Shown: positions 6,096-30,820 of the stretch, piece after piece | How the letters are laid out: each line of letters starts with the position of its first letter | How positions within the stretch are numbered: the stretch's first letter is position 1 | Source: Escherichia phage vB_EcoP_R4596 | Reading direction: 5' to 3' (one strand) | DNA length: 45,130 nt | Sequence record: MK373771.1 | The notes under the pieces: model-generated | Databases searched by the model: none | The model's input: the letters and a program-made list of their open reading frames with translations, nothing else | Told to the model about the DNA's origin: nothing | Made by a program: the position numbers and the translations under genes

Positions 6096-6111
6096 GTCTC
6101 ACATGTGAGAC
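6096..6111. repeat. 16-bp perfect palindrome GTCTCACATGTGAGAC (copy a)
   Basis: Read directly; immediately 5' of the promoter at 6113. Confidence 0.9.
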
Positions 6112-6112
6112 T

Positions 6113-6135
6113 TATTTACCGGACACTATAGGAGA
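6113..6135 (+). promoter_or_regulatory. Phage-RNAP promoter
   Basis: TTTACCGGACACTATAGGAGAG; matches the window consensus. Confidence 0.7.
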
Positions 6136-6278
6136 GCCGTCGGAGACGGGAAAGAGAAGGGAAGATAAAGGATATAAAGGAAGTAATAGGTATTAAAGGT
6201 TATATAGGTTTACCTAGGAATACCTATTACCTTCTTCCTTCCTCTTATTACCACTTAGAGGAAGGGCAGATCTAGGTT

Positions 6279-6294
6279 GTCTCACATGTGAGAC
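6279..6294. repeat. 16-bp perfect palindrome GTCTCACATGTGAGAC (copy b)
   Basis: Read directly; immediately 5' of the promoter-like sequence at 6299. Confidence 0.9.
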
Positions 6295-6298
6295 TTCG

Positions 6299-6321
6299 TA
6301 TTTACCGGACAGTATAGATAA
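6299..6321 (+). promoter_or_regulatory. Phage-RNAP promoter-like sequence (variant CAGTATAG)
   Basis: TATTTACCGGACAGTATAGATAAG; one substitution in the conserved CACTATAG core. Confidence 0.45.
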
Positions 6322-6347
6322 GACTAACTTACTTTGGAGATTTAACT

Positions 6348-6476
6348 ATGCGTAACCTAGAAAAGATTACCCGTAAAACTAAGCGTTTCGACATGGAAGA
6401 AGGGCAGACTAAAGGCAAGAAGCTGAATAAACCTGTCCGTGACCGTGCATCTAAACGCGCTGCGTGGGAGTTCTAA
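6348..6476 (+). CDS. Small basic protein (42 aa)
   Basis: GGAGA ribosome-binding site; Lys/Arg-rich translation MRNLEKITRKTKRF... Confidence 0.4.
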   Translation: MRNLEKITRKTKRFDMEEGQTKGKKLNKPVRDRASKRAAWEF

Positions 6477-6479
6477 GTT

Positions 6480-8468
6480 ATGGCTATTATTCAGAATGTA
6501 CCGTGTCCTGCCTGTCAAAAGAATGGACATGATATTACTGGCAACCATCTTATGATATTTGAGGATGGCGCTGGTTACTGTAATCGTGGTCACTTCCATG
6601 ATAACGGTAAGCCTTACTATCATAAGCCAGAGGGCGGCATCGAGATAACCGAATTGCCCATTACTGGCAATATCAAATACACACCTTCTCAATTCAAAGA
6701 AATGGAGAAGGAAGGGAAGATAAGCGACCCTAAGCTACGCGCCATCGCACTAGGTGGTATGCGTATGAAAGACCGTTGGGAGGTCATGAATGAGCAAGAA
6801 AGGGCAGAGCAAGAAGCAGAGTGGAAACTTGATGTTGAATGGTTCCTCACGCTTAAGCGTAAGAATCTTGTTTCCCGACACATTCGCGGCGACATTTGCG
6901 CATTGTATGATGTACGTGTCGGACATGATGAAGAGGGTAGAGTCTCACGGCATTACTATCCACGCTTCGAGAAAGGTGAACTAGTAGGCGCTAAGTGTCG
7001 CACATTACCTAAAGACTTTAAGTTTGGTCATTTAGGTAAACTATTTGGTATGCAAGATCTTTTCGGTATGAACACTTTGTCTCACGTGTTAGACAAGGGG
7101 AGACGAAAGGATTGCTTGCTTATTGTAGGCGGTGAACTTGATGCACTAGCAGCGCAGCAGATGCTCCTTGATTCTGCCAAAGGTACTAAGTGGGAAGGTC
7201 AGCCATACCATGTATGGTCTGTCAATAAAGGTGAGTCTTGCCTTGAAGAGATAGTGCAAAACCGTGAGCACATATCCCAATTCAAGAAGATTATATGGGG
7301 CTTTGATGGCGACGAGGTGGGGCAGAAGCAGAACCAACAAGCTGCTCGCCTGTTTCCTGGCAAATCCTACATCCTCGAATATCCATCTGGTTGCAAAGAT
7401 GCTAACAAGGCATTGATGGCTGGCAAGGCTAAAGAGTTTGTAGATGCATGGTTTAATGCCAAGTCATCTGATGAAGTCTTTGGTAGCCAGATTAAATCTA
7501 TCGCATCTCAAAGGGATAAGCTCAAGGCTGCACGTCCAGAACAAGGGCTGTCATGGCCTTGGCCTAAGCTAAACAAGGTAACGCTGGGTATCCGTAAGAA
7601 TCAGCTTATCATTGTAGGCGCAGGCTCTGGTGTGGGTAAGACTGAGTTCCTCCGTGAAGTAGTTAAGCATCTCATTGAAGAACACGGTGAATCTGTAGGC
7701 ATCATTTCTACAGAAGACCCGATGGTTAAGGTGTCCCGTGCTTTTATCGGTAAGTGGATTGATAAGCGTATTGAGCTACCGCCAACCAATGACCCGAAAG
7801 AAGATGGATACCGTGAGGTGTTCGACTATACCGAGGAAGAGGCTAACGCTGCCATTGACTATGTAGCTGATACAGGGAAGCTGTTTGTGGCTGACCTAGA
7901 GGGTGACTATTCAATGGAGAAGGTAGAGCAGACCTGCCTTGAGTTTGAGGCTATGGGTATTTCCAATATCATCATTGATAACTTAACGGGGATTAAATTA
8001 GATGAGCGTGCTTTTGGTGGGAAGGTTGGTGCACTTGATGAATGCGTCAAGCGGATTGGTACTATCAAAGACCGACACCCAGTTACTATATTCCTTGTAT
8101 CACACCTTACACGTCCTCCGGCAAACCGTACCCAACACGAAGAAGGTGGCGAAGTTATCCTTTCTGACTTCCGAGGCTCAGGAGCTATCGGATTCTGGGC
8201 ATCTTACGCCTTGGGCATCGAAAGGAACACGAGGGCAGAGACACTAGATGAGCGAACTACTACCTATATTTCCTGTGTTAAAGATAGGGATCAAGGGATT
8301 TACTCTGGTACTAAGATTATGCTTAAGGGTGACATCGCTACGGGCCGACTGCTAGAACCACAAGCCCGTACTAAGTCATTTGATACAGGTGAAGCAAGGC
8401 AACAAGAAGTACCTGATTTACCGGACACTATAGAAGAGACAACCTTTGACGATGAACAGGAGTTTTAA
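6480..8468 (+). CDS. DNA primase/helicase (T7 gp4-like, 662 aa)
   Basis: N-terminal Cys4 zinc motif CPACQ...CNRGH, Walker A GAGSGVGKTE, acidic C-terminal tail ending DDEQEF. Confidence 0.93.
   Translation: MAIIQNVPCPACQKNGHDITGNHLMIFEDGAGYCNRGHFHDNGKPYYHKPEGGIEITELPITGNIKYTPSQFKEMEKEGKISDPKLRAIALGGMRMKDRWEVMNEQERAEQEAEWKLDVEWFLTLKRKNLVSRHIRGDICALYDVRVGHDEEGRVSRHYYPRFEKGELVGAKCRTLPKDFKFGHLGKLFGMQDLFGMNTLSHVLDKGRRKDCLLIVGGELDALAAQQMLLDSAKGTKWEGQPYHVWSVNKGESCLEEIVQNREHISQFKKIIWGFDGDEVGQKQNQQAARLFPGKSYILEYPSGCKDANKALMAGKAKEFVDAWFNAKSSDEVFGSQIKSIASQRDKLKAARPEQGLSWPWPKLNKVTLGIRKNQLIIVGAGSGVGKTEFLREVVKHLIEEHGESVGIISTEDPMVKVSRAFIGKWIDKRIELPPTNDPKEDGYREVFDYTEEEANAAIDYVADTGKLFVADLEGDYSMEKVEQTCLEFEAMGISNIIIDNLTGIKLDERAFGGKVGALDECVKRIGTIKDRHPVTIFLVSHLTRPPANRTQHEEGGEVILSDFRGSGAIGFWASYALGIERNTRAETLDERTTTYISCVKDRDQGIYSGTKIMLKGDIATGRLLEPQARTKSFDTGEARQQEVPDLPDTIEETTFDDEQEF
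8415..8438 (+). promoter_or_regulatory. Phage-RNAP promoter inside the 3' end of the primase/helicase gene
   Basis: GATTTACCGGACACTATAGAAGAG. Confidence 0.65.
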
Positions 8469-8629
8469 TGGAAATTATTAAACCAGTATTGAATATCGGT
8501 ATTGAGATCCTATTCATGCTTGTGATCGCAGATTATGCTGCACGATATGGATTCAAGAAAGCTGTGAAACTTATCGTTGCATCTGGTTTTCTTATGTCAA
8601 TGTTCTTTATTGTAACACGTCTTATCTAG
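8468..8629 (+). CDS. Small hydrophobic membrane protein (53 aa)
   Basis: ATG overlaps the primase stop (TAATG); translation MEIIKPVLNIGIEILFMLVIADYAA... is hydrophobic. Confidence 0.4.
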   Translation: MEIIKPVLNIGIEILFMLVIADYAARYGFKKAVKLIVASGFLMSMFFIVTRLI

Positions 8630-8646
8630 TGTATTTATCAGGGCTT

Positions 8647-8662
8647 GTCTCACATGTGAGAC
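8647..8662. repeat. 16-bp perfect palindrome GTCTCACATGTGAGAC (copy c)
   Basis: Read directly; flanks extend the potential stem to about 12 bp. Confidence 0.9.
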
Positions 8663-8701
8663 AGGCTCTTATTAAGTACATTAAATAACTGGAGATTGAT
8701 T

Positions 8702-9424
8702 ATGTATAAATTAGTATTGAATGCAGGTGATTATGTTCGTAACATCAATGAAGCCTCACGTCGTTATCGTTGCCGTGGTGTGGTTAGCTATGTAAGTGAG
8801 AACATGTACCATGTGGAGTACAGCAACGGCATTAAACAATCTTATCATAAGAAGTTAGCACATAACTACCTTGAGAAGATTGGCGAGACAAGCAATCAAT
8901 GCAAGTGTGTACATGATGAGGTTTGCGATAAGTGCAAACGTCAGGCAATTAAAGCCTTTACCTTTGCGCAACGTTATGGTTCTATGTATGGTGCTGGTCA
9001 CAAGACCGTTGCAGAAGCAGCTTGGAAGACATTACAGTTTGAGCATTCAAATGGACGACGCACCACAATTAAGAAAGAGCGCCGCAATGTCATCACTGGT
9101 AAGACTCAAAGTGAGATGATTAAGCAATGTGGCACTGCATTAGGTGTTACACAGTTCAATACACGTGCTCTAGGTAAATCTACAGGACAAGCTATGTTTA
9201 AGATTGGTGAAGCCATGATGCATCCAAATGTACCTGTGCGAATCATGGATGTTGACCATGCAATCACAGAGCACGGCACACCACGACGTGTAGTTAATAA
9301 GCATTTTGCAGACACTATAGAAGGTATTATCCTTAAGCAAGGTTTAAAGGGTCTTCATATCTTAAACGGTGAAGAGTTGCTGTACCTCCCTATTGTTACT
9401 GAAGAAACCTACGTGAATATCTAA
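8702..9424 (+). CDS. Hypothetical protein with Cys cluster CKCVHDEVCDKCK (241 aa)
   Basis: GGAGA Shine-Dalgarno 6 nt before ATG 8702; no family recognized. Confidence 0.6.
   Translation: MYKLVLNAGDYVRNINEASRRYRCRGVVSYVSENMYHVEYSNGIKQSYHKKLAHNYLEKIGETSNQCKCVHDEVCDKCKRQAIKAFTFAQRYGSMYGAGHKTVAEAAWKTLQFEHSNGRRTTIKKERRNVITGKTQSEMIKQCGTALGVTQFNTRALGKSTGQAMFKIGEAMMHPNVPVRIMDVDHAITEHGTPRRVVNKHFADTIEGIILKQGLKGLHILNGEELLYLPIVTEETYVNI
9303..9326 (+). promoter_or_regulatory. Candidate intragenic phage-RNAP promoter
   Basis: ATTTTGCAGACACTATAGAAGG; the 14-nt core GACACTATAGAAGG is identical to the consensus. Confidence 0.4.
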
Positions 9425-9434
9425 GGAGTTAATC

Positions 9435-9653
9435 ATGACTAAAGTATTAATTTATATGAGAGGTGCTAATAAGTGCTATGCAGTTGTAGCACCTGATGGA
9501 GTCAAGCCGTATGGTACTTCAAAAGGACTGGCATTAATAGGTGCTAGTCACAGTGCAAGTTTCCAAATGGAACTTTTTGGTCATTGGACTGAAAAAGAAT
9601 TCCGTGAGGAATTTAATGTAATTGGCAGCTTTATGGTGAAACATGCAAAATAA
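9435..9653 (+). CDS. Hypothetical protein (72 aa)
   Basis: AAGGAG Shine-Dalgarno; no motif recognized. Confidence 0.5.
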   Translation: MTKVLIYMRGANKCYAVVAPDGVKPYGTSKGLALIGASHSASFQMELFGHWTEKEFREEFNVIGSFMVKHAK

Positions 9654-9840
9654 ACACAGCCTTAAGATGTTTGATGGTCATGAAGACCTGCAAGCACAAA
9701 TTACTAACCAAGCCTTCCTGTTTGCACAGTTAACTATGGCTGAAGCAAAGAAGAACAGCCTTACTCGTGAGCAGATTATCAAGGAAGGTAGCCGTGGTGT
9801 TACTCGTCGTACCAAGAACCACAGAAGTGGTGCTCGCTAG
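9643..9840 (+). CDS. Hypothetical protein (65 aa)
   Basis: ORF overlapping the upstream gene end; weak ribosome-binding site. Confidence 0.35.
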   Translation: MQNKHSLKMFDGHEDLQAQITNQAFLFAQLTMAEAKKNSLTREQIIKEGSRGVTRRTKNHRSGAR

Positions 9841-9857
9841 TCGATAAGTCAAGGGTT

Positions 9858-9873
9858 GTCTCACGTGTGAGAC
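9858..9873. repeat. Palindrome variant GTCTCACGTGTGAGAC (copy d, 15/16)
   Basis: One substitution in the central tetranucleotide; flanks AAGGG...CCTTT can extend the stem. Confidence 0.85.
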
Positions 9874-9998
9874 AGCCTTTCATCATATTGATTGGAGGTG
9901 CATTATGCCACGTGATTATGATTCTGATTGGGACTACTATGACTCAATGAATCCAAAACCCGAACGTTCAGATGATTACTACGAAACAGAGGCAATGT

Positions 9999-12545
9999 AT
10001 GAAAACTATTGATTGGAAGAAGGAAGCAGAAGGGCGCATCCTAGTGATGGATGCTGAAAGTAAAGGTCTGCTTGATGCTATCCGCTACGGTCATCGTGAA
10101 GATGTACACATCATTTGCTGCATGGACTTGCTCACCACTGAGGAGTTCCTCTTCTTCGACCCATATGAGATGCGTGATCCTGAAGCGAGGGAGCGCCTGA
10201 AAGAATGGGAAGGCCATCAAGATGGAACCTTGGTTGATGGTGTTAATTTCCTGAAGCATTGTGAAGCTATTGTGTCGCAGAACTTCCTAGGATATGACGG
10301 TCTTCTCTTTGAGAAAGCGTTCCCTGATATCTGGAAAGGCTTTAATTATACCGAGAAGCGCGGCAAGGGCAGACTCCGTGCCGACCTGTGTCCTGTGCGA
10401 GTCATGGACACGCTGGTGATGAGCCGCCTGTTAAACCCCGATAGACGCCTTCCTCCGCAAGCATATGCCAAAGGTATGGGTAACGTCGCCCCTCATTCAA
10501 TTGAGGCGCACGGCATCCGTATAGGACGCTATAAGCCGGAGAATGAGGACTGGTCTAAACTAACTGACCACATGGTTCACCGTGTCCGCGAGGACGTGGC
10601 AATCGGTCGTGACCTTTTCCTGTGGCTGTACAATGGAGAGTGGACGGAGCATAAACGCCGTGGCGTGAATAAACGCACTGGCCTAGGCATTGAGACAGCC
10701 TTCCACATGGAGTCTATTGTGGCGCTGGAGATGAGCCGTCAGGCAGAGCGTGGATTCCGTCTGGATATTGACAAAGCACTAGCGCGATGCGAAGAACTGG
10801 ACGCTAAGATTGATGAGACAGTCGCAGCGTTCCGCCCTCACATGCCTATGCGTATCAAGTCTAAACCTTTTAAACCGGAAGAAAAGAATGAAGTATGCCA
10901 ACGCGCAAATGAGTATGGAGCTAGCAACAATATACCTACTGTCCTTGACCCCTCACACTTTCTTCATGCCGAGAGACGAGGAGATCGCAAGACAGTATGG
11001 AGTGTCACTACTAAGTCTGGTGATTGGTCGGCTAGCGTCAAGAAAGACTTTCCTCACCTTAGAGGAAACCGTAATGACACGCCAAGCATCAAGTGGATTG
11101 GCGCTTACTCGCCTGTTACTTTCGAAGAGATTCCCTTGGGTAACAGGGATACAGTTAAGCAAGTGCTCTATGATTATGGATGGAAAGGTGTTGAATTTAA
11201 CGATACCGAGCAAGCGCATCTCGATGAGCATGGCGTATTACCCAAACCTTGGAGTGGAAAGATAAATGAGAAATCCCTTACTTTATGGCAAGAAAGAGCC
11301 GCACGTGAAGGTAAAACAGTACCAGATTGGTGCTTGGGTATCGCTGCATGGTACATACTCGTATCCCGTCGTGGTCAGATCCTCAACCGTGGTGACGTTG
11401 AAGCCTTCGATCAGAAGGGGGCGTGGCCTTCGCAAGCTGGTGTACGAAAGTGTCGCGGCCTTATACCTGTAGCCTTTAACAAGGAATTAGGAATCAATGC
11501 GCAACAATACTACGAGAGGTATGGGTATTGGCCTACGTCTGACAAGGATGACGGAGAGTGGCGTGTGCCAGCTATTGCTATTAGTATTGGCACTTCTACG
11601 TTCCGTATGCGTCATCGCAATGTGGTTAATATTCCTGCCCGTGGCTTGTATCCTTTACGTGATTTATTCATAGCAGGTAAAGGTAAGCTAATCCTTGGTT
11701 GTGATGGTGCAGGTCTTGAACTACGTGTACTTTCTCACTTCATGAATGACCCTGAGTACCAAGATATTGTACTGCATGGCGATATACATACTCATAACCA
11801 GATGAAGGCGGGTCTTCCTAAGCGTGATATGGCGAAGACATTTATATATGCCTTCCTTTACGGCTCTGGTATAGCTAACCTTGCAGCAGTGTGCGGTGTT
11901 ACTGAGGAAGAAATGAAGGAAGTTGTGGCAAGATTCGAGATTGAATTACCATCCCTTGCACGTCTTCGTGAGAATGTTATCGCACAAGGCAACAAGTTTG
12001 GATACTTACAAGCACCTGACGGGCATTGGGGTCGCATCCGTATGTCTGGTGGAGAACTTAAAGAGCACACTATGCTTAATGTATTACTCCAAATGACTGG
12101 CTCTTTGTGTATGAAATACGCATTGGTCAAAGCGTTTGCAGTGATGCGCAAGGAAGGTGTGGCCTTAGATAGTATGGGACACCCTTGTGGTGTAGCTAAC
12201 GTGCACGATGAAATCCAGATGGAAGTACCTGAAGAAGAGGTATTGTATCTTAACTACGACCTACCTTTCACCTTAGAGGGGTTTGAAACAGAGAAGGCTG
12301 CTGTGAAAGCAGTATTCGATGCAGAGGAGAAACGTGTTCATGTGGATTCTGAAGGACGTATGTGGTCTGCTGCAAATCTCATTAGTGTTGATGCTGCTGC
12401 TGGTGTACTTCATTGCCAGCGTCGTTATCACCGCGCAGGGCATATCATTGCCGACGCCATGACTTGGGCTGGTCAGTATCTGAAGATGCGTTGCCCGATG
12501 GCAGGCGAGTATAAGATTGGCGCAAGCTGGAAGGAAACGCACTAG
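9999..12545 (+). CDS. DNA polymerase, family A with 3'-5' exonuclease domain (T7 gp5-like)
   Basis: Exo motif ILVMDAESKGL, motif B KTFIYAFLYGSG, motif C VANVHDEIQMEV; likely start ATG 9999 with GAGG ribosome-binding site (track begins at 9972). Confidence 0.93.
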   Translation: MKTIDWKKEAEGRILVMDAESKGLLDAIRYGHREDVHIICCMDLLTTEEFLFFDPYEMRDPEARERLKEWEGHQDGTLVDGVNFLKHCEAIVSQNFLGYDGLLFEKAFPDIWKGFNYTEKRGKGRLRADLCPVRVMDTLVMSRLLNPDRRLPPQAYAKGMGNVAPHSIEAHGIRIGRYKPENEDWSKLTDHMVHRVREDVAIGRDLFLWLYNGEWTEHKRRGVNKRTGLGIETAFHMESIVALEMSRQAERGFRLDIDKALARCEELDAKIDETVAAFRPHMPMRIKSKPFKPEEKNEVCQRANEYGASNNIPTVLDPSHFLHAERRGDRKTVWSVTTKSGDWSASVKKDFPHLRGNRNDTPSIKWIGAYSPVTFEEIPLGNRDTVKQVLYDYGWKGVEFNDTEQAHLDEHGVLPKPWSGKINEKSLTLWQERAAREGKTVPDWCLGIAAWYILVSRRGQILNRGDVEAFDQKGAWPSQAGVRKCRGLIPVAFNKELGINAQQYYERYGYWPTSDKDDGEWRVPAIAISIGTSTFRMRHRNVVNIPARGLYPLRDLFIAGKGKLILGCDGAGLELRVLSHFMNDPEYQDIVLHGDIHTHNQMKAGLPKRDMAKTFIYAFLYGSGIANLAAVCGVTEEEMKEVVARFEIELPSLARLRENVIAQGNKFGYLQAPDGHWGRIRMSGGELKEHTMLNVLLQMTGSLCMKYALVKAFAVMRKEGVALDSMGHPCGVANVHDEIQMEVPEEEVLYLNYDLPFTLEGFETEKAAVKAVFDAEEKRVHVDSEGRMWSAANLISVDAAAGVLHCQRRYHRAGHIIADAMTWAGQYLKMRCPMAGEYKIGASWKETH

Positions 12546-12729
12546 TGGATAGATTAGATATTGTTTGCTTGTTCTTTACCTTCTTTCTTGTCTTTCTTAT
12601 GCTTGCTTGTTATGGAAGTATTCAGGTAAATATACCTGATGAAGAGGAAGGATACGACTGAGTTATACTCAAGGTCACTTACGAGTGGCCTTTATGAATA
12701 ACTTACTCCTACTTATTTTGTCTAACATG

Positions 12730-12752
12730 ATTTACTGGACACTATAGAAGGA
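12730..12752 (+). promoter_or_regulatory. Phage-RNAP promoter
   Basis: ATTTACTGGACACTATAGAAGG. Confidence 0.75.
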
Positions 12753-12816
12753 AAGCCTAGGTAATCTAGGTTTATAAGGTAGTATAGGTAATTAAGTAAA
12801 TATAGGAGATATAAAT

Positions 12817-13194
12817 ATGTCTATGGTAACTACTCTGGTATTCGTAGCTCAATACTTTCGTGGCCTGGCTAATAAGTTTAAACAGAAAGCAATCTTTGCA
12901 ATTCAAGAACGTATTAATAAAATTGAAGAAGAACAAGTAGATGTAGAGGAACATCGTAGTTCTCAGATGATTGACCTGCATAATCGTCTGTACAAAGATC
13001 GTGATGAGATGCGTCACCGTCATGCGAAGGAAGTTGAAGACATGCTTAACCGCCATGCGGAAGAACAAGCTAAGTTGGAAACCACCTTCCATGAGGATAA
13101 ACGTAGCATCGCTCTAGCACATCAAGCTGCATCGGATATCCTGAAGAGAGAGATTGTTATGCTGGAGATTGAGTTAGACAATCTTACCAAATAA
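12817..13194 (+). CDS. Hypothetical protein with hydrophobic N-terminus and charged coiled-coil region (125 aa)
   Basis: GGAGA ribosome-binding site; no family recognized. Confidence 0.55.
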   Translation: MSMVTTLVFVAQYFRGLANKFKQKAIFAIQERINKIEEEQVDVEEHRSSQMIDLHNRLYKDRDEMRHRHAKEVEDMLNRHAEEQAKLETTFHEDKRSIALAHQAASDILKREIVMLEIELDNLTK

Positions 13195-13356: not shown

Positions 13357-14163
13357 ATGGCACGTGGTGATTTTGATTTTGGTGCTCAGGTTACTAAAGC
13401 TGAAGGTAAAGTATTTAAGAACCCTGAAGTTGGTGATCATGAAGCAGTAATCTCTGGCATCATTCATGTTGGTTCCTTCCAAGATATTTTTAAGAAAGGT
13501 AATACCACTGAGGTTAAGAAGCCAGCAAACTTTGTTCTAGTTAAGATTATCCTGATGGGTGACGATGACAAGAATGAAGATGATTCTCGCATGGAACAGT
13601 GGATGGCTGTACCGCTGAAGTCTGGTGACAAGGCAACCTTGACTAAGTTCTTGAATGCAGTTGACCCCAAAGAATTGCTTGGTGGCTTCGATGACTTCAT
13701 CGGTGAATGCCTGACTGCAACCATGGTTGGTTCTGGTGATAAGAATGACGATGGCTCATTCAAGTATGTTAACTGGAAGGGTTTTGGTGGTATGCCGGAC
13801 AAGCTGAAGAAACTTGTCATTGCTCAGGTTGAAGAGGAAGGTCTGTCTATGACAGGTCATATTACCTTTGACAAGCTGACCAAAGAAATCCTTGATGACA
13901 TTCCTGCTAACTTGGTACGCCAATACTTCCTGAATGAAACCCCTCGTGGTAAGAACCTGTCTGTTGCTGGTTCTCACGTAGAAGAAATCATTAAAGCTGC
14001 TCGTGAAGAAGATCCTGAGTGGAAGAAGGCTAAGAAGAAAGATGACGAGGATGCTACTCCAGCTAATCGTAAGTCTCTGGACACTGGCGAGTCTGTTCCA
14101 CAGGAAGTGCCGGAGGCAGAGGACACTCCTGCACCGGAAATGGATGAAGACGCGGAATACTAA
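13357..14163 (+). CDS. Putative ssDNA-binding protein (gp2.5-like role inferred, 268 aa)
   Basis: Position in the replication module and acidic C-terminal tail ...PEMDEDAEY ending in an aromatic residue, as in the T7 gp2.5 and gp4 tails; no direct sequence match recalled. Confidence 0.35.
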   Translation: MARGDFDFGAQVTKAEGKVFKNPEVGDHEAVISGIIHVGSFQDIFKKGNTTEVKKPANFVLVKIILMGDDDKNEDDSRMEQWMAVPLKSGDKATLTKFLNAVDPKELLGGFDDFIGECLTATMVGSGDKNDDGSFKYVNWKGFGGMPDKLKKLVIAQVEEEGLSMTGHITFDKLTKEILDDIPANLVRQYFLNETPRGKNLSVAGSHVEEIIKAAREEDPEWKKAKKKDDEDATPANRKSLDTGESVPQEVPEAEDTPAPEMDEDAEY

Positions 14164-14169
14164 GGAGGG

Positions 14170-14392: not shown

Positions 14393-14408
14393 GTCTCACA
14401 TGTGAGAC
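14393..14408. repeat. 16-bp perfect palindrome GTCTCACATGTGAGAC (copy e)
   Basis: Read directly; 2 nt after the stop of the 14170-14391 gene and 14 nt before the promoter. Confidence 0.9.
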
Positions 14409-14422
14409 AAATCGGTGTCCAG

Positions 14423-14446
14423 TATTTACTGGACACTATAGAAGAG
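14423..14446 (+). promoter_or_regulatory. Phage-RNAP promoter
   Basis: GTATTTACTGGACACTATAGAAGAG; its upstream half lies in a 9-bp inverted repeat GTGTCCAGT / ACTGGACAC (14415-14436). Confidence 0.75.
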
Positions 14447-14495: not shown

Positions 14496-14864
14496 ATGTT
14501 CAAGATTGAAACTATCGTAAACCGTGTTGTTAAAGGTGCTGCTCTGGTGTCCGTTGAATCTTTCATTATCGTCGATGAAGCTGATCAACTGGTAGCTGGC
14601 ACTAAGGCTTACGATACCCGTGAAGAAGCTCAGGCTAAGATTGACAGCATGGGTAACTTTGCTGCTGGTCTGGAGTTCGCTCGTGCTTGCTTCCCTGAGC
14701 AGGCTGACAAAGCACAGATTGGTAAGGCTAATATCGTAGCTGAATATCTGGATTGGGTTGCTGCTGGTAAACCAGTGAAAGAAGCTAAGGCTGAAGAAGC
14801 TGAAGCTCCTGCAGTAGAAGAAACCAAAGCAGAAGAAGCTCTGTCTGCTGAAGAAGAATTTTAA
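14496..14864 (+). CDS. Small acidic protein of unknown function (122 aa), boxed by its own promoter and terminator
   Basis: AAAGGAGA ribosome-binding site; C-terminal tail ...EAKAEEAEAPAVEETKAEEALSAEEEF ending in Phe. Confidence 0.65.
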   Translation: MFKIETIVNRVVKGAALVSVESFIIVDEADQLVAGTKAYDTREEAQAKIDSMGNFAAGLEFARACFPEQADKAQIGKANIVAEYLDWVAAGKPVKEAKAEEAEAPAVEETKAEEALSAEEEF

Positions 14865-22634: not shown

Positions 22635-22640
22635 TTCAGT

Positions 22641-23921: not shown

Positions 23922-23930
23922 TAACCTATG

Positions 23931-23966
23931 CCCTATCTACCTTGCGTAGGTAGGGTTCTTTTGTTT
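23931..23966 (+). terminator. Tphi-like terminator after the capsid gene
   Basis: CCCTATCTA-CCTTGCG-TAGGTAGGG then TTCTTTTGTTT. Confidence 0.75.
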
Positions 23967-23976
23967 AGGAGGGTTC

Positions 23977-24717
23977 ATGCCTTTAATTCAAAATACAAGT
24001 GATGTTGGACGTATCATGGCTGAGGCTTCCTTCAATATCATTGATAGCAAACTAGAAGCAGTGAACCTGTGTATGCGAGCTATCGGTCGTGAGGGTGTGG
24101 ACTCTCTTGACTCTGGCGACTTAGATGCTGAAGATGCTAATAAGATTATTGATATTGTCTCACAACGTTTCCAATACAATAAGGGCGGTGGTTGGTGGTT
24201 TAACAGGGAACCTAACTGGTTACTTAAACCTGACACAAATGGTGAAGTGAACATGCCAAACAATTGTCTTGCTGTTCTCCAATGCTACGCCCTAGGTGAA
24301 CGTAAAGTGCCTATGACTATACGAGCAGGCAAGTTGTATTCTGTTTGGAATCACACTTTCGACATGTCAAAGTACGTTAATCAGGATGGGCGTATTAGGC
24401 TGACTCTGGTAACATTACTACCTTTTGAGCACCTACCTGCAAGTGTTATGCAAGCCATTGCCTATCAAGCTGCTGTAGAGTTTATTGTGTCTAAGGATGC
24501 TGATAAGACTAAGTTACAAGCACACCAGCAGATCGCAGCACAGCTTATGATTGATGTTCAGTCAGAGCAGTCTTCTCAGAAGAGACTCAATATGCTTGTA
24601 CATAATCCTACTCAGCGCAACTTCGGAATCATGGCAGGTGGCTCTCAGAATGTACCAGCGTTCTCCTATTCACCTTATGACACTTACCCTGTAAGGCCGT
24701 GGGAGGTTGATAGATAA
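23977..24717 (+). CDS. Tail tubular protein A (gp11-like)
   Basis: N-terminal pattern AIGREGVDSLDSGD.DAEDANKIIDIV resembles T7 gp11; position. Confidence 0.8.
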   Translation: MPLIQNTSDVGRIMAEASFNIIDSKLEAVNLCMRAIGREGVDSLDSGDLDAEDANKIIDIVSQRFQYNKGGGWWFNREPNWLLKPDTNGEVNMPNNCLAVLQCYALGERKVPMTIRAGKLYSVWNHTFDMSKYVNQDGRIRLTLVTLLPFEHLPASVMQAIAYQAAVEFIVSKDADKTKLQAHQQIAAQLMIDVQSEQSSQKRLNMLVHNPTQRNFGIMAGGSQNVPAFSYSPYDTYPVRPWEVDR

Positions 24718-27119
24718 TGGAAGTACAAGGTTCTTTAGGTCGCCAGATTCAAGGTATCAGCCAGCAGCCAGCAGCAGTAAGGTTGGATGGGCAGTGTACC
24801 GATATGATTAATATGATCCCAGATGTAGTAAATGGAACACAATCTCGCATGGGTAGCACTCATATTGCAAAGCTAATGGAAGTAGGCAGTGACAATATGG
24901 CAACACATCATTATAGAAGAGGTGATGGGGTAGAAGAGTATTTCTTTGTCATGAAGAAAGGAAGTGTTCCTGAAATCTTCGATAAACAAGGAAGGAAGTG
25001 TGGGGTGACTTCTCAGGATGCACCTATGACTTATTTAGCGGAAGTTGTAAACCCTAGAGAAGATGTGCAATTCATGACGATTGCAGATGTAACCTTTATG
25101 CTTAACCGTAGGAAGATAGTCAAAGCGAGGGCAGAGCGATCTCCGAAGGTTGGTAATCAAGCCATCGTGTTTAGTGCATATGGTCAGTATGGTACAACCT
25201 ATAAAATCCTTATCAATGGTAGTGTAGCTGCTACATACAAGACATCCGTAGGCGGGATACCTGAAGATGTTGAAACTATTAGGACAGAGAACATTGCATC
25301 TAAGTTGTATGAAGAGTTACAGAAGTGGAGTGGGATAGCGGATTATACTATACAACGAGATGGTACTAGTATATTCATTGAGAAGAAGGACGGATCATCC
25401 TTTGAAATATCCACGGAAGACGGTGCTAAAGGTAAAGACTTGGTAGCTATTAAGAACAAAGTGACATCTACTGATCTCTTGCCATCCAGAGCACCAGCAG
25501 GGTATAAGGTGCAAGTGTGGCCTACTGGTAGTAAACCTGAATCCAGATACTGGCTGGAAGCTGAACCAAAAGACGGAAACCTAGTATCTTGGAAAGAAAC
25601 CATTGCCGCCGATGTATTGCTTGGCTTTGATAAAAGCACCATGCCTTACATCATTGAGCGCACAGGTTTTACTGGAGATATTGCTCAGTTTAGAATCCGT
25701 CAAGGCGATTGGGAGGACAGGAAGGTAGGTGATGACTTAACTAACCCTATGCCATCATTCATTGATGAGGAAGTACCACAGGCGTTAGGCGGGATGTTCA
25801 TGGTGCAGAATAGATTATGTGTCACCGCTGGTGAAGCAGTTGTGGCTACAAGGACTTCTCATTTCTTTGACTTCTTCCGCTTCTCCTCTGTGTCCGAGGT
25901 TGCAACAGACCCTTTTGATATCTTCTCAGATGCAAGTGAAGTGTATCAATTGAAGCACGCAGTGACCCTAGATGGAGCTACAGTGTTATTCTCTGATAAC
26001 TCTCAATTCATACTTCCCGGCGACAAAGTGTTAGAGAAATCTAATGTGCTATTAAAGCCTGCAACAACCTTTGAAGTTGACAATAAGGTAGCACCTGTAG
26101 CTACAGGTGAGGCTGTGATGTTCGCAACAAGCGAAGGTGCATACTCAGGTGTACGCGAGTTCTATACCGACTCATACAGTGACACTAAGAAAGCACAGGC
26201 AGTCACCAGTCATGTGAATAAGTTGATTGAAGGAAATATAACTCACATGGTAGCCAGCACTAACATAAATAGGCTACTAGTAGTTACAGACAGGGATCCT
26301 AATATCGTATACTGCTATGATTGGTTATGGCAGGGAACGGAAAAGGTTCAATCTGCATGGCATAAATGGGTTTGGCCTAGAGATACGCTGATACGCTCTA
26401 TGTTCTATTCTTCAGAGACACTCTACCTTTTAGTGGAAAGAGGTGGTACAGGTTTATATCTTGAAGTTATGGATATGGGCGATGCATTAACCTACGGGCT
26501 TGTTGATAGAATAAGACTAGACAGGCAGGCAGAGCTTATCTTCACTTATGACTCCTACAACTCTCAGTGGGTATCCGACCACTTACCTTGGACACCTACT
26601 GACGCTTCTCTCTTGGATTGTGTTATCACGACAGGTTGGCCTGCATACATTGGAGGTGCATTTGGTTTTGAATACGATTCGACAAATAACAGGCTGATAA
26701 CTACTTTTGATTTAGCCGATGAGCAGTCTAATGCAGTAGTAGTAGTAGGGCAGTTATATCAACAAGAATTTGAACCAACTCAGGTGGTTATCAGAGATAA
26801 TCAGGATAGGGTGTCTTACATAGATGTACCGGTAGTGGGATTAGTTCATCTTAATTTAGATAAGTATCCTGATTTTCAAGTGAATATCAGAAACCTTAAG
26901 AGTGGAAAGACACGTAAGGTATTAGCCTCTAACCGTAAAGGTGGTGCACTGAATAACATTGTTGGTTATGTTAAACCAGAAGAAGGTTCTTTCAAATTTC
27001 CACTCAGGTCACTTAGCACTGATACGGTTTATCGTATTATTGTCAACTCCCCTCATACATTCCAACTTAGGGATATTGAGTGGGAAGGGACATACAACCC
27101 AACTAAGAGGAGGGTATAA
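24717..27119 (+). CDS. Tail tubular protein B (gp12-like, 800 aa)
   Basis: Size and position match T7 gp12; start overlaps the upstream stop. Confidence 0.85.
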   Translation: MEVQGSLGRQIQGISQQPAAVRLDGQCTDMINMIPDVVNGTQSRMGSTHIAKLMEVGSDNMATHHYRRGDGVEEYFFVMKKGSVPEIFDKQGRKCGVTSQDAPMTYLAEVVNPREDVQFMTIADVTFMLNRRKIVKARAERSPKVGNQAIVFSAYGQYGTTYKILINGSVAATYKTSVGGIPEDVETIRTENIASKLYEELQKWSGIADYTIQRDGTSIFIEKKDGSSFEISTEDGAKGKDLVAIKNKVTSTDLLPSRAPAGYKVQVWPTGSKPESRYWLEAEPKDGNLVSWKETIAADVLLGFDKSTMPYIIERTGFTGDIAQFRIRQGDWEDRKVGDDLTNPMPSFIDEEVPQALGGMFMVQNRLCVTAGEAVVATRTSHFFDFFRFSSVSEVATDPFDIFSDASEVYQLKHAVTLDGATVLFSDNSQFILPGDKVLEKSNVLLKPATTFEVDNKVAPVATGEAVMFATSEGAYSGVREFYTDSYSDTKKAQAVTSHVNKLIEGNITHMVASTNINRLLVVTDRDPNIVYCYDWLWQGTEKVQSAWHKWVWPRDTLIRSMFYSSETLYLLVERGGTGLYLEVMDMGDALTYGLVDRIRLDRQAELIFTYDSYNSQWVSDHLPWTPTDASLLDCVITTGWPAYIGGAFGFEYDSTNNRLITTFDLADEQSNAVVVVGQLYQQEFEPTQVVIRDNQDRVSYIDVPVVGLVHLNLDKYPDFQVNIRNLKSGKTRKVLASNRKGGALNNIVGYVKPEEGSFKFPLRSLSTDTVYRIIVNSPHTFQLRDIEWEGTYNPTKRRV

Positions 27120-27844
27120 TGGCAGTAATGGCAACAGTAGGATCAAGCCTAGCCAGTATGTTCTCCAGTAGTGCAGGTGCTGCGGCTGCTAGTAGTGCTG
27201 CTGGTAGTGCCGCCGCTGGAAGTGGTGGTGTACTTGGCTCTATCGGAAGTTTCTTAGGTGGAAGCTCTGCTGGCTTTTCTAATGCAGGTTTGTTGTCTGC
27301 TGGACTACAAGGCTTAAACTTACTAGGCGGTCTATTCGGTGGACGAGATACCGCTAAGGCTATGCAGAAAGCACAAGAAGAAGAATGGAGACAAAGGCTA
27401 GAAGCCACACGTGAAGCCTATTCTTCTGTGGCAGATGCAGAGCGGGCTGCTGCAAAGCAATATCATTCTGACTTCCTTAGTAATCAAATTTCACTGATGC
27501 AGCAACGAGCGCAAGTTGCAGTAATGGCAGGCGCTACTGGAACAGGTGGTAGCTCCATCACATCCATGCTCAATGATTTGACGGCAGAAGGCGGTCGCAA
27601 TCAGTCAACCATTATAGATAATTATGAGAATCAGCAAATCAACTTTGCCAACCAGTTGAAGTCTATTCAACGCAGTGGACAGATGCAGATGCGAACGTTT
27701 GACAAACCTTCCGCTTTGGGTACTTTGGTGAAAGGAATACCAAGCATTGCATCTTCCTATGTCACCGGAAGTAAAGCAGGTATGGCACTTGGCAAGGCTA
27801 TCACTGAGTCTCGTACTTATTCATCAGGAACTAGAGGAGTTTAA
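27119..27844 (+). CDS. Internal virion protein (gp13/gp14-like), Gly/Ala/Ser-rich N-terminus
   Basis: Position after tail tube B; overlapping start and stop codons. Confidence 0.65.
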   Translation: MAVMATVGSSLASMFSSSAGAAAASSAAGSAAAGSGGVLGSIGSFLGGSSAGFSNAGLLSAGLQGLNLLGGLFGGRDTAKAMQKAQEEEWRQRLEATREAYSSVADAERAAAKQYHSDFLSNQISLMQQRAQVAVMAGATGTGGSSITSMLNDLTAEGGRNQSTIIDNYENQQINFANQLKSIQRSGQMQMRTFDKPSALGTLVKGIPSIASSYVTGSKAGMALGKAITESRTYSSGTRGV

Positions 27845-30787
27845 ATGGCAATTGAACGTCAAGCTGTACAAGGACTAGAAAGAGTACAGTCAAGGGGCGC
27901 GCCAACACCTATGTCTTTCACACCACGACAAGTGAGTATCTCAGGGGGCGCGGATGCCTCCGGTAGTAGATTTTTGGAAGACTTAGTAAACGCTGCAAGT
28001 AGTGTGGCTGATGTCACTACTGCTATCCTTAATCAGCAAGTAGAAGACGATAAGGTTCGCCAGATGGATAGGGCTTTGTCTGGCATGATGCCTTCTGAGG
28101 ATGCTACGGTAGGTGGTGCTCGTGCGCATATGCTGGTTAGTTTACAAAATGATGTAATCGCACAGACAACTGCGCTACAAGTAGAAGCACAGCGATTTCA
28201 AGGTAGTGACGAGGATTGGGAAAACTATGTAGTTCAATCTCGTAATGAGGTACAAAATAGGTTATGGCAAAGTTATCCAGAGCTTCGTGGTGACAAAGAT
28301 TCTATGAGACTTGTCACTAACGCGTTCATGGAGCAGCAACCTAGAATTACTGCAACTAGAGCAGAGGCTAAACTTCGTCAAGAAGAAGAAGCACGAATGC
28401 AATCTATGCAGTCTCGTATTATCATGGCTACACGGGACGTAGCGCCAGATGCCACTGGTGCAGCACTCATCCAGTTACAAAAAGAAGCACTGGCGATGGG
28501 TCTTAGTAAACCTGAGTTTGATCAGATGGTTGCTAAGATTGCATCTGACAGAGCGGCAGTAGGAGATGATAGTCTTATTCAGGGAACCAAAGCACTGGTG
28601 GATGATAAGGGTGTCTCTTTGTATGACCGTGTTGGTGCTTTGCAAACTGGAGAGATTCAAGCTAACAGAGCTTGGGCTGCGCAGAATCAGGTTGCCCTCT
28701 TTGAGAAGAAGGATGCAGCTATAAAGGCATTCGATGCAGGGCAACTTACTCGTGAAGAGTTACTTCAGGTGATGCAGAATCACAATGAATTGACTGGTGG
28801 TACTGCTTGGTCTGATAGCGAGATCAAGGCTATCTTCGATAGGCAAGCTAAGGCTAATGCAGAGAAAGCAAAGCTCGAAGATCTTATTGCACGAGGTGAA
28901 TCTGGGTCGCCTTTAGGTTTACAGGATATTAGTAAGGATGACAGAAAATCCTATGCTGAAGCCTTAGTTAGTACCTACACTAAGTTGGCAGAAGATGAAA
29001 TTGCCCGTACTGGTGCAACGGGAGAACAGGCTGAAGCTATTCGCGGTAGGTATGAGCAGATGCGTTATCTTAAATTAGGGCAACAACTTATTGAAGACCC
29101 AATCATTAAGGAAAGATATTCGTCGCTTATGCAATTATCCTCTGCCAACCTTAAAGATATGAATGTTGAGCCTGAAGCATTACAGACCATCATGCGAGCG
29201 CGGGACTCTATTCCAGAGGATGCACGTCGTGCTGTCATGGGAGACAAAGAGTATGCCTTTGTAGAGAACTACGACCTAGCAACTCGCATGGGGTATAACG
29301 CAGGTCAAGCTATTGAGTTTGCACAGAATGCCTCTCGTGGAGAGAAGCTACAAGGTTCTGTACTTAAAGAACTGAATGATGATGTAGATGGAGTTGTAAG
29401 TGATGTGGCAGGAGGTAGTTGGCTTACTCGTGGCGATAATATGAGTGAGATGGGTCGTGACATTATGATGGAGGAGGCAAGTACAATTGCGAGAGCAATG
29501 AAGGTTGCAGGTCATAATAATGACACGATTAAACGTCATCTTAAATCCTATTTGACGAGCCAGTATACACAGTTATCAGAGGGCTTCTTCACCCAAGGTG
29601 TTCTGGTGAAAGGTGATGTACGAACATTAGGTGACACTATAGGAGTAAACCAGAATGACCTTCCTATGGCGCTACGTCAATATATGGATAACAACAAGCA
29701 AGCACTTCTTGATGCATCAGGTGGCTTAGAAGAGGGTGATTTGTATTTTGATGTAGATGCGCAGCGGGGACTCTTTACCATACGTGCAGGGTCTGGTCGT
29801 GTACCTGTTACGCAGGCAATGCCTTTGTCTGAAATCAAAGGGCAGTCCTTGCTTAAGCAAAGATATGATGCAGAGGTTAAAGCCCGTGATGAGGGGCGTA
29901 AGAATTTTGAAGCACAGCAAATGAGGATGTGGGGCGCAGGTGGCTACCAAGCACAACCACCTGCAAAGACTACAGCCAAAACTGTAGGCTCCCGTGGGAT
30001 TGCTGACTTCTTAATGTCACCTGCCTTTGCATCAGGCGAGAATCTACCAGCAAACTTTGAGTTTGGATATAAGAGGAATAATATGGACTTCTACAATTAT
30101 GTAGCCAAGATGGAGAATAATGCCAATGTGGGCTTTGACCGAGTAGCTGGTGTTTATACACCATACAAAGATGCACATGGTCAATCTGTCGGGTACGGTC
30201 ACTTCCTTACTACTGAAGAGAAGAAGAACGGATACATTATGATTGGTACAGAGAAAGTGCCATTCACTCCGGGACAATCTCAATTAACACCAGAACGAGC
30301 CATGCGCCTTCTACAGCAAGACTTGAAGAGTCATGTGCCAAACACTTCAGGGTGGGCTGTTCCATTCGAAGAGATGCACCCAGGTGTTCAGCGTGGCCTT
30401 ATGGACTTGTCCTATAATTTAGGCAAAGGAGGTATCCAGAATGCACCTAAAGCCTATGCTGCGTTTAAGGCTGGCAAGTTTACTGATGGATTTATTGAGA
30501 TGTTATCTACTGCATCTACTGAAGGTAAGCGTAGTACTGGGTTGTTGGTTCGTAGGGCAGAAGCATACAACCTTGCACAGAGTGGAGGTGCTATTCCTAA
30601 GATTAGTGAAGTAGAGACACGAGCCGATGGGTCTATGTATGTTAAGTTTGCAGGACAGATGTCAGAGGCTTTCGTAAATAAATCAATCTACAATCAGATT
30701 GGTAAGGATGGATGGCTGCAAGTGTACCCTCCAAAACAAGGTGTACTTGCACCTAACACCAAGATTGGTAGAATCAAACTAAGCTAG
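27845..30787 (+). CDS. Internal virion protein with C-terminal lysozyme-like (GH24) domain
   Basis: Position; C-terminal MENNANVGFDRVAGVYTPYKDAHGQSVGYGHFLT...GVQRGLMDLSYNLGKGG resembles the T4-lysozyme Glu/Asp/Thr core as recalled. Confidence 0.75.
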   Translation: MAIERQAVQGLERVQSRGAPTPMSFTPRQVSISGGADASGSRFLEDLVNAASSVADVTTAILNQQVEDDKVRQMDRALSGMMPSEDATVGGARAHMLVSLQNDVIAQTTALQVEAQRFQGSDEDWENYVVQSRNEVQNRLWQSYPELRGDKDSMRLVTNAFMEQQPRITATRAEAKLRQEEEARMQSMQSRIIMATRDVAPDATGAALIQLQKEALAMGLSKPEFDQMVAKIASDRAAVGDDSLIQGTKALVDDKGVSLYDRVGALQTGEIQANRAWAAQNQVALFEKKDAAIKAFDAGQLTREELLQVMQNHNELTGGTAWSDSEIKAIFDRQAKANAEKAKLEDLIARGESGSPLGLQDISKDDRKSYAEALVSTYTKLAEDEIARTGATGEQAEAIRGRYEQMRYLKLGQQLIEDPIIKERYSSLMQLSSANLKDMNVEPEALQTIMRARDSIPEDARRAVMGDKEYAFVENYDLATRMGYNAGQAIEFAQNASRGEKLQGSVLKELNDDVDGVVSDVAGGSWLTRGDNMSEMGRDIMMEEASTIARAMKVAGHNNDTIKRHLKSYLTSQYTQLSEGFFTQGVLVKGDVRTLGDTIGVNQNDLPMALRQYMDNNKQALLDASGGLEEGDLYFDVDAQRGLFTIRAGSGRVPVTQAMPLSEIKGQSLLKQRYDAEVKARDEGRKNFEAQQMRMWGAGGYQAQPPAKTTAKTVGSRGIADFLMSPAFASGENLPANFEFGYKRNNMDFYNYVAKMENNANVGFDRVAGVYTPYKDAHGQSVGYGHFLTTEEKKNGYIMIGTEKVPFTPGQSQLTPERAMRLLQQDLKSHVPNTSGWAVPFEEMHPGVQRGLMDLSYNLGKGGIQNAPKAYAAFKAGKFTDGFIEMLSTASTEGKRSTGLLVRRAEAYNLAQSGGAIPKISEVETRADGSMYVKFAGQMSEAFVNKSIYNQIGKDGWLQVYPPKQGVLAPNTKIGRIKLS
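29624..29646 (+). promoter_or_regulatory. Candidate intragenic phage-RNAP promoter
   Basis: CATTAGGTGACACTATAGGAG matches the SP6-type core TTAGGTGACACTATAG. Confidence 0.4.
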
Positions 30788-30804
30788 TGGTATACTCAAG
30801 GTTT

Positions 30805-30820
30805 GTCTCACATGTGAGAC
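30805..30820. repeat. 16-bp perfect palindrome GTCTCACATGTGAGAC (copy f)
   Basis: Read directly; between two internal virion protein genes; flanks AAGG...CCTT and a following TTTATGAAT shared with the hairpin at 12648. Confidence 0.9.

Follow-up and report, generated by a model that had tools for sequence, protein, structure and literature searches.

The genome of Escherichia phage vB_EcoP_R4596 (sequence record MK373771.1) carries eight copies of a 16-base-pair (bp) palindrome, GTCTCACATGTGAGAC or close variants of it, which we propose, at a rough probability of 0.6, to be the DNA site of an early helix-turn-helix (HTH) protein that doubles as an RNA hairpin. The computed evidence comprises the site family itself, its conservation and fixed slots, the RNA structure of three copies, a fold prediction and a covariation between protein residue and site. 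The reader would be a phage-encoded dimeric HTH protein, the 310-amino-acid (aa) product of the gene at 2399-3331, whose recognition helix (residues 61-74) would read one arm each, with residue 66 contacting arm position 5 as Lys if that position is C:G and as Asn or His if it is A:T. The window analyzed here, 45,130 nucleotides (nt), is the whole genome with a direct terminal repeat of 285 bp. It comes from a Vectrevirus (K1E/K1-5-like, Molineuxvirinae); a comparison over 9.2 kb with Escherichia phage vB_EcoP-101118B1 gave 97% identity.

The palindrome family and its slots

A pattern search of the whole window located GTCTCACATGTGAGAC exactly at 6096, 6279, 8647, 14393 and 30805, and with a single central substitution (A8G) at 9858. 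These are the six copies of the initial annotation, all confirmed, and two further members bring the family to eight: a two-mismatch copy inside the primase/helicase open reading frame (ORF) and a copy near the left genome end that was found by a structure-aware scan. Beyond these eight, the window holds no further relative at two or fewer mismatches. The number expected by chance is about 0.005-0.04; shuffled genomes gave 0.04 matches at two or fewer mismatches, and none of 100 shuffles reached seven. A palindrome with 7-nt arms, whatever its sequence, never occurred more than once in a shuffled genome. The eight sites and the gene of the candidate reader are as follows (RNAP, RNA polymerase).

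610..625, no strand: left-end member GTCTAACACGTTAGAC, about 35 nt 5' of the -35 element of a sigma70-like early promoter (TTGACA 660 / TACTAT 688)
2399..3331, + strand: early gene immediately 5' of the RNAP gene, encoding the 310-aa candidate palindrome-binding protein; listed start GTG, ATG at 2408 used for the model
6096..6111, no strand: stand-alone palindrome that follows the early terminator (6030-6053) and lies 2 nt 5' of the promoter at 6114-6136
6279..6294, no strand: stand-alone palindrome 5 nt 5' of the promoter at 6300-6322, ahead of the gene at 6348-6476
7079..7094, no strand: coding copy GTCTCACGTGTTAGAC within the ORF for primase/helicase, translated as S-H-V-L-D
8628..8688, + strand: two-tier RNA hairpin tipped by palindrome 8647-8662, 3' of the primase/helicase operon
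9839..9899, + strand: two-tier RNA hairpin with palindrome 9858-9873 at its tip, before the DNA polymerase ORF
14393..14408, no strand: stand-alone palindrome 1 nt past a stop codon and 15 nt 5' of the promoter at 14424-14446
30786..30846, + strand: two-tier RNA hairpin with palindrome 30805-30820 at its tip, between two internal-virion-protein genes

The site has a two-fold symmetric 7+2+7 layout, two GTCTCAC arms around a 2-bp R-Y centre. Eleven matches to the phage promoter ATTTACYGGACACTATAGRAGAG occur in the window, and the palindrome lies directly 5' of three of them (6114, 6300 and 14424), at 2, 5 and 15 nt from the first promoter base (-17). The initial annotation had counted four such copies; the promoter nearest the 8647 copy is at 8416, about 230 nt upstream. 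Its description of the copies as lying just after a stop codon holds for 8647, 9858, 14393 and 30805 (gaps of 17, 17, 1 and 17 nt) and fails for 6096 and 6279, which sit within a 326-nt non-coding stretch 3' of the RNAP gene. Nor is the family always intergenic, as had been claimed, since the 7079 copy is in coding sequence.

Counting the palindrome in related genomes, a check that had been suggested with the initial annotation, gave counts of 5-9 per genome throughout the SP6-like lineages examined (seven Molineuxvirinae genera, four Colwellvirinae lineages and uncultured relatives) and zero in the T7 and phiKMV genomes. The copies occupy conserved slots: 5' of early host-type promoters; ahead of each of the first two phage promoters, in the first case following the early terminator; within the primase gene and 3' of the primase/helicase gene; ahead of the DNA polymerase gene and of the 14424 promoter; and between the two internal-virion-protein genes. 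Some lineages have extra slots in the RNAP gene, after the capsid gene beside a terminator, or at the right genome end. These positions are constant across subfamilies with about 42% RNAP identity. The slot at 610 is also occupied in SP6, K1-5, cp4, PP1, phD2B, Kp7, Nerthus and VEN, in relatives often by hybrids of two half-site types that would not pair as RNA, and the order terminator, palindrome, promoter at 6096 is kept in 9/9 aligned Molineuxvirinae genomes. The gene that follows the 6279 copy (6348-6476) is a homolog of T7 gene 1.1 (Pfam Phage_1_1), and this copy shares the slot of T7 R1.1, which is located just before phi1.1B (phi1.1A / R1.1 / phi1.1B).

Arm statistics were taken from 164 unique copies at 49 oriented loci. 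Only three arm forms, GTCTCAC, GTCTAAC and GTCCAAC, occur in the Molineuxvirinae and Colwellvirinae, and the centre is invariably R-Y, or A-S-T in 17-mers. Copies with mismatches are nearly all hybrids of allowed arms, other substitutions being present in 9 of the 164. Pairing of the two arms as RNA differs by location:

Long-hairpin copies: Watson-Crick throughout 37, G.U 8, mismatch 5
Promoter-adjacent copies: Watson-Crick throughout 29, G.U 3, mismatch 3
Other intergenic, mostly genome-end, copies: Watson-Crick throughout 22, G.U 6, mismatch 14
Coding copies: Watson-Crick throughout 19, G.U 6, mismatch 12

Conserved arms, a degenerate centre and hybrid half-sites fit recognition of base identity in each arm and do not fit pairing alone. 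The primase-gene copy is read as tcY Mac gtg ttR gac, with third codon positions invariant in six lineages while adjacent codons vary. In Vectrevirus its Asn codon has become His (cac), which matches the arm of its own genome and breaks an RNA pair; the pair stays broken because the partner change that would make the palindrome perfect would also make a TGA stop.

Several occurrences outside the eight slots were also recorded. Copies inside the RNAP gene were recorded in six genomes (L171 4636, L172 4686, L050 5159, L045 4863, L047 5622, L048 4901): at a homologous position, as a 17-mer in the Vibrio phages VEN and phiA318 and as a 16-mer in Kenya-K31, PP1 and phD2B, and also in Nerthus. The RNAP-gene copy is sporadic within the Molineuxvirinae and absent from the window and from SP6, which encodes the identical peptide with different codons. 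Six uncultured SP6-like contigs of distant relatives (L008, L009, L016, L020, L033 and L034) have the same 16-mer between the major capsid gene and the terminator, 2-4 nt from the terminator hairpin, and Nerthus has one directly 3' of two terminators. K1-5 has a single GTCCAAC-type copy amid GTCTCAC copies. Kenya-K31 (L045 above), a Zindervirus with GTCTAAC/GTCCAAC sites of its own, has one Vectrevirus-type GTCTCACATGTGAGAC at 6620-6635, directly after an extra gene, which suggests a cassette exchanged between genera. About 12 chance matches to the exact 16-mer are expected in viral contigs by a rough estimate, so singletons were ignored. A 129-kb viral contig of 68% G+C (L043), apparently an unrelated large phage, has the identical 16-mer at 964, 1004 and 3004, at the tips of long perfect G+C-rich hairpins.

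A candidate protein reader

Few genes are common to the palindrome-bearing phages, the Pseudomonas phage Nerthus included, and absent from T7; the gene at 2399-3331 is one of them. Its product belongs to the SP6 gp7 / K1-5 gp6 family, which matches no Pfam family and has a PHROGs entry of "unknown". In an AlphaFold2 model built from ten orthologs, a confidently predicted N-terminal domain of helices only (pLDDT 84-88) is joined through a disordered acidic linker to a long helix and a small C-terminal domain. The N-terminal domain is predicted to resemble the HTH DNA-binding domains of ParB and KorB, with helix 46-57, turn 58-60 and helix 61-74 (KAQCYKLMSVARVF). Structural matches of the model scored as follows.

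Spo0J/ParB: 9.4
ParB DNA-binding domain (DBD): 7.8
Operator-bound KorB DNA-binding domain: 7.6
KorB: 7.3
SopB-DNA: 5.5
P1 ParB: 5.4
VirB-DNA: 5.2

Position 6 of the predicted recognition helix (residue 66) follows the arm sequence without exception in 29 loci and in seven out-of-sample genomes. Lys at this position goes with GTCTCAC in 7/7 lineages (Vectrevirus, Era103, Nerthus, VEN, phiA318, MJG and contig L019), the Lys group within the 29 loci consisting of ten Vectrevirus loci, Nerthus and the distant uncultured contig L019. Asn, or His in SP6, goes with GTC(C/T)AAC in all six lineages of the other group, Asn being found in cp4, Kenya-K31, PP1, phD2B, Kp7 and relatives, and Premi. Contacts of Lys with G and of Asn with A are classic in the major groove. 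In a tree built from the RNAP, DNA polymerase and primase/helicase sequences, Vectrevirus is nested in the Asn group and Nerthus falls outside it; from the nested position of Vectrevirus we infer at least two coupled switches of residue and site. For the out-of-sample test the gene was found in 211 phage records, and the top repeated palindromes with 7-nt arms were listed for seven distant genomes without motif input:

Era103, Vibrio VEN, phiA318 and Aeromonas MJG: Lys at position 6, top palindrome with GTCTCAC arms
Gajwadongvirus PP99 and MR4: helix KKAWAYRLMK, with Arg at position 6 and also Trp at position 3, palindrome GTCTAGT-NN-ACTAGAC
Marinomonas CB5A: divergent helix, half-site GTTCGAG, with GTTCGAGATCTCGAAC after the RNAP, primase and DNA polymerase genes

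The suggestion in the initial annotation that the palindrome is read by a dimeric DNA-binding protein is thereby partly supported: sequence and modelling supply a candidate, an early protein with a predicted ParB/KorB-like HTH fold, in which one residue of the putative recognition helix covaries with the half-site in more than ten lineages. That the candidate protein binds the palindrome is our inference from these two lines. Its highly conserved C-terminal domain (residues ~250-307, PMLPQFKS...LGLS...LVKLGYGEGHEAW) has a predicted J-domain-like fold and no HPD motif.

A number of observations weigh against recognition by this protein. The perfect covariation is limited to one helix position, and the lineages that covary are partly dependent on one another. 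The alignment behind the model is shallow (10 sequences) and the fold match is moderate, with Foldseek E-values of 0.8 or worse and Raf1 scoring equal to ParB. No sequence-level link between the 310-aa protein and ParB or KorB was detected. The ParB/Srx CTP-binding N-domain is missing, the DNA-binding-like domain beginning at the N-terminus and Pfam giving no ParBc match, so that the protein can be at most ParB-DBD-like and not a canonical ParB or KorB. Transcribed intergenic copies in Zindervirus are all U.G and never C.A, an RNA-compatible asymmetry that points to selection at the RNA level beyond the three long hairpins. Premi has 16- and 17-nt versions together, easier to reconcile with a hairpin than with a rigid dimer, and the distance to the promoter varies (2-15 nt here, 5-16 nt in Nerthus), which leaves no fixed operator geometry.

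RNA structure and alternative readings

Folding of 76-nt segments around the copies divided the family in two, in line with the earlier remark that flanking pairing varies. Copies 8647, 9858 and 30805 top two-part hairpins in which an internal loop of 2/3 nt separates an upper stem of 13 bp from a lower stem of about 10 bp (8628-8688, -30.6 kcal/mol, z -7.4; 9839-9899, -32.9 kcal/mol, z -5.0; 30805 hairpin, z -2.2). Copies 6096, 6279 and 14393 fold as the 6-bp core only, and the two-tier architecture is absent from 610, 6096, 6279, 7079 and 14393. The stand-alone copies show no conserved extended structure apart from a separate promoter hairpin at 14414-14436, and in long-range pairing between 6096 and 6279 the flanks add nothing to the duplex. 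The 3' arm of the 9839-9899 hairpin extends to the DNA polymerase Shine-Dalgarno sequence (ORF start ATG 9903). All three long hairpins recur at equivalent positions in SP6, K1-5, Premi (Proteus), cp4, Kp7 (Klebsiella), Kenya-K31 (Salmonella), PP1 (Pectobacterium) and phD2B (Lelliottia). RNAalifold applied to 27 long hairpins from nine genomes gave 24 consensus pairs, 14 of them with compensatory changes. Several positions of this alignment are mostly G.U, which on the opposite strand would be C.A, and the folded molecule is therefore the plus-strand RNA.

The flanks of these three copies resemble the RNase III processing sites of T7. Those at 30805, ATACTCAAGG...CCTTTATGAAT / ATACTCAAGG...CCTTTATGAATGAC, nearly equal the T7 consensus AGTGnTATACTCAAGGTC...GGCCTTTATGATT; the T7 cleavage coordinates were checked against the motif CCTTTAT^GAT of the T7 record, with which they coincide. 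A covariance model trained on seven T7 sites only recovered T7 R6.5, absent from its training set, and a search of the window with filters off gave seven leading plus-strand matches, all at gene starts:

12660-12711, + strand: T7-type apex without palindrome, 55 bits
30786-30846, + strand: palindrome-tipped hairpin, 35.6 bits, E 4e-5 to 7.5e-6
9839-9899, + strand: palindrome-tipped hairpin, 21.4 bits, E 0.021
2339-2390, + strand: hairpin without palindrome before the 310-aa gene, 20.7 bits
3327-3381, + strand: hairpin without palindrome before the RNAP gene, T7 R1 slot, 19.1 bits
8628-8688, + strand: palindrome-tipped hairpin, 19.0 bits, E 0.078
1546-1596, + strand: hairpin without palindrome before the ocr homolog, T7 R0.3 slot, 18.6 bits

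All three palindrome-tipped hairpins are among these top seven, and every further match was at or below 13.6 bits. An Rfam scan of the whole window returned nothing at E <= 1. Since T7-type sites without the palindrome exist in the same genome, the palindrome is a separable module, and copies 8647, 9858 and 30805 are probably, to judge from sequence, the apical module of RNase III processing sites. Like the T7 sites (R0.3, R0.5, R1, R1.1, R1.3, R4.7, R6.5, R13 and R18.5), their hairpins are two-tier, lie between genes and adjoin ribosome-binding sites, and the 30805 hairpin shares the consensus ACUCAAGG...CCUUUAUGA / ACUCAAGG...CCUUUAUGAUU. They differ in that the upper stem is a conserved palindrome and 3 bp longer. 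The copies at 610, 6096, 6279, 7079 and 14393 have no extended stem and, unlike the T7 sites, would not be RNase III substrates alone. RNA processing, an alternative in the initial annotation, is thus supported for three copies, as the apical part of covariation-supported hairpins that resemble T7 RNase III sites; the accompanying statement that no described T7 or SP6 element could be recognized overlooked the T7-type element formed by the flanks of these copies.

DNA and RNA features may be combined in one scheme. The eight sites would mark boundaries of transcription units, 5' of the early host-type promoter, 5' of three phage promoters and 1-17 nt past stop codons, with one copy inside the primase gene. 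Being palindromic and located in transcribed DNA, the site would also form a 6-bp hairpin in the mRNA, and at three boundaries the flanks would have evolved to lengthen this hairpin, giving it the two tiers of a T7 RNase III-type stem. The extended hairpins most likely direct processing, after which the upstream message would keep a protective hairpin at its 3' end. Such an extension would explain why pairing is kept, with U.G over C.A, in those and in most transcribed copies; genome-end and coding copies tolerate hybrid arms.

It is possible, though we think it unlikely, that the element acts purely at the RNA level, as a stem-loop at message 3' ends that serves as an RNase III site tip, an exonuclease barrier or a hairpin for an RNA-binding factor, with no DNA-binding protein involved. 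Such a role would suit the three copies in covariation-supported, G.U-rich plus-strand hairpins like T7 RNase III sites, the compensatory differences among lineages (U-A/C-G, U-G/A-U, C-G/A-U), the full pairing of 91% of promoter-adjacent or long-hairpin copies, the U.G instead of C.A in Zindervirus and the equivalence of 16- and 17-nt forms as hairpins; T7 sites R1.1, R4.7, R6.5 and R13 likewise lie directly 5' of promoters. A 6-bp stem is, however, below the RNase III minimum by textbook knowledge, and stems confined to three sequences with a loop restricted to R-Y are the opposite of usual RNA-protein recognition. Mismatches (C.A, A.G or C.U) made up of allowed arms occur at genome ends, in coding copies and in some of the copies next to promoters, the Vectrevirus coding copy altered an amino acid while breaking pairing, and the tracking of the arms by a residue of an HTH-like protein would be left unexplained.

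A terminator or pause hairpin for phage (or host) RNAP, closing units before the next promoter, is extremely improbable. Copies do lie at gene ends, three of them just 5' of promoters; 6096 and 6279 come up in a simple scan as weak resemblances to terminators (6 pairs), the Premi GenBank annotation labels three long hairpins "terminator", and the palindrome abuts a true terminator in some relatives. The T-rich tails at 6096 and 6279 are nevertheless the AT-rich start of the promoter, the scan leaves 8647, 9858, 14393 and 30805 unflagged, and no copy in the window has the stable G+C-rich hairpin and adjoining U-run of an intrinsic terminator; this suggestion of the initial annotation goes without support. 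The 3' flank is A-rich in most genera. Genes 3' of 8647, 9858 and 30805 have no nearby promoter of their own, and efficient termination would shut off expression of the DNA polymerase and of an essential virion protein; copies inside genes and 5' of early promoters do not fit either. Very unlikely, too, is a selfish or recombinational element, a boundary for module exchange or a homing-nuclease target with no regulatory role. The Kenya-K31 copy right after its extra gene and the single GTCCAAC-type copy of K1-5 would be in keeping with it, hybrid arms resemble recombination products, and palindrome and promoter pairs resemble the PeSL cassettes reportedly described by Arbiol et al. (2010) and discussed below. 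Slots fixed across subfamilies at about 42% RNAP identity are not the pattern of a mobile element, though, and the coding copy is under purifying selection at the nucleotide level, the sites are present with or without HNH genes, and covariation with a protein residue is unexpected for a passive recombination site. That covariation is accounted for by none of these three alternatives.

Two other candidates were considered and set aside. For a primase recognition site, the arms lack GCA, reportedly the SP6 primase site (Tseng et al. 2000), and the invariant-GTC flanks misfit T7-type primase sites. No convincing match to the sites of host factors (CRP, LexA, Fur, MetJ and the LacI/GntR families) is known.

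Further structures and proteins were noted in the neighborhood. A second hairpin lies 3' of the 14393 copy, where the promoter 14424-14446 is embedded in a 10-bp inverted repeat, GGTGTCCAGTA TT TACTGGACAC (14414-14436); its upstream arm covaries with the promoter specificity region in SP6, Premi, PP1 and phD2B, and the repeat resembles T7 R6.5 and R13, which enclose their own promoters. The transcript from promoter 6114 opens with a hairpin, CCGTCGGAGACGG (6137-6149), conserved in all aligned Molineuxvirinae and followed by a purine-rich/pyrimidine-rich inverted repeat (6177-6194 / 6219-6236); the region 6137-6250 corresponds to the slot of the T7 primary replication origin. A distinct 18-bp perfect palindrome, ATACATAACGTTATGTAT, is present at 42438-42455, 12 nt 5' of the right-end phage promoter at 42468. 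The products of 13357-14163 and 14496-14864 are conserved and have acidic C-terminal tails with a final aromatic residue (...DEDAEY, ...EEEF). PDB and Pfam sequence searches with both were without match; the tails suggest replication proteins, T7 gp2.5 and gp4 having comparable tails that dock on DNA polymerase, and the 268-aa protein is probably a single-strand DNA-binding protein.

Known systems and significance

ParB-family proteins are dimers that read palindromes of 13-16 bp. The parS site is a 16-bp palindrome with 7-bp arms, its arm GTTTCAC being one base from GTCTCAC, and sopC likewise has 7-bp arms around a 2-bp centre; relative to parS, the phage arms lie 2-3 bp further apart. The phage family shares with ParB-parS and SopB-sopC, including the dispersed centromere repeats of prophage N15, a multi-copy palindrome with arms of about 7 bp, and the 310-aa protein family shares with ParB, KorB and SopB a putative specificity residue that changes together with the site. 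In contrast to these partition systems, the phage has neither ParA or another partition ATPase nor a plasmid lifestyle, and its sites are at the gene boundaries of a virulent phage. By position the candidate protein is best compared with KorB, the ParB-family global repressor of plasmid RK2 that acts at OB sites, as a global regulator or insulator at transcription-unit boundaries. It differs from KorB in having no CTP-binding N-domain and no detectable sequence similarity, and in its J-domain-like C-terminus; the adjoining promoters serve a single-subunit phage RNAP, and the host replicon is a lytic phage, not a plasmid. By this analogy, putative binding might regulate or insulate the adjoining transcription units as KorB does on RK2, a suggestion we make with low confidence and regard as the weakest step of the argument.

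A conserved stem-loop immediately 5' of a promoter, repeated at gene boundaries, characterizes the PeSL (promoter-early stem-loop) cassettes of T4-type phages. Three phage copies have this layout of stem-loop and promoter, and the Kenya-K31 copy at 6620 may be a case of transfer. The surroundings of PeSLs are hyperplastic regions, where they flank novel ORFs, whereas the phage sites are in fixed slots of the conserved core and covary with a protein. No description of the palindrome, and no mention of the 16-mer or its variants, was found in the searchable literature, which did not cover the genome papers of SP6 (Dobbins 2004) and K1-5 (Scholl 2004), either of which may mention RNase III-like sites. 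Literature searches that combined SP6-like phages with palindromes, RNase III, ParB or DUF3102 gave nothing relevant, the phiA318 and UAB_Phi78 papers leave the element unmentioned, and the GenBank records of K1E, K1-5 and SP6 have no regulatory annotation.

For the SP6-like phages as a whole (Molineuxvirinae, Colwellvirinae and Gajwadongvirus), the comparisons and models incline us, by a modest degree, to the view that they possess an early ParB-DBD-like protein with a J-domain-like tail as a second DNA reader besides RNAP, with 5-9 boundary sites that double as RNase III hairpin tips and a specificity retuned several times by single helix changes, each followed by every site of the genome, the one in the primase gene among them. 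The T7-type phages serve in textbooks as the example of genes controlled solely by promoter strength, RNase III processing and a single polymerase. An early DNA-binding protein with its own sites would add a regulatory layer, missing from the T7 paradigm, to the large SP6 branch, which includes many therapy candidates against K1, Klebsiella, Salmonella, Proteus, Vibrio and Pseudomonas. An early gene that ranks with the most conserved of those labelled "hypothetical" would thereby acquire a function, and the resistance of such intergenic sequences to free editing in phage engineering would be explained. The natural series of residues and sites (K/N/H/R vs C, A, AGT) is a ready system for the co-evolution of specificity and target, and the three RNase III-like hairpins together with the four that have no palindrome are testable processing sites of SP6-type mRNAs. 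If the proposed reading is right, control at the DNA level and at the RNA level would be coupled at one sequence.

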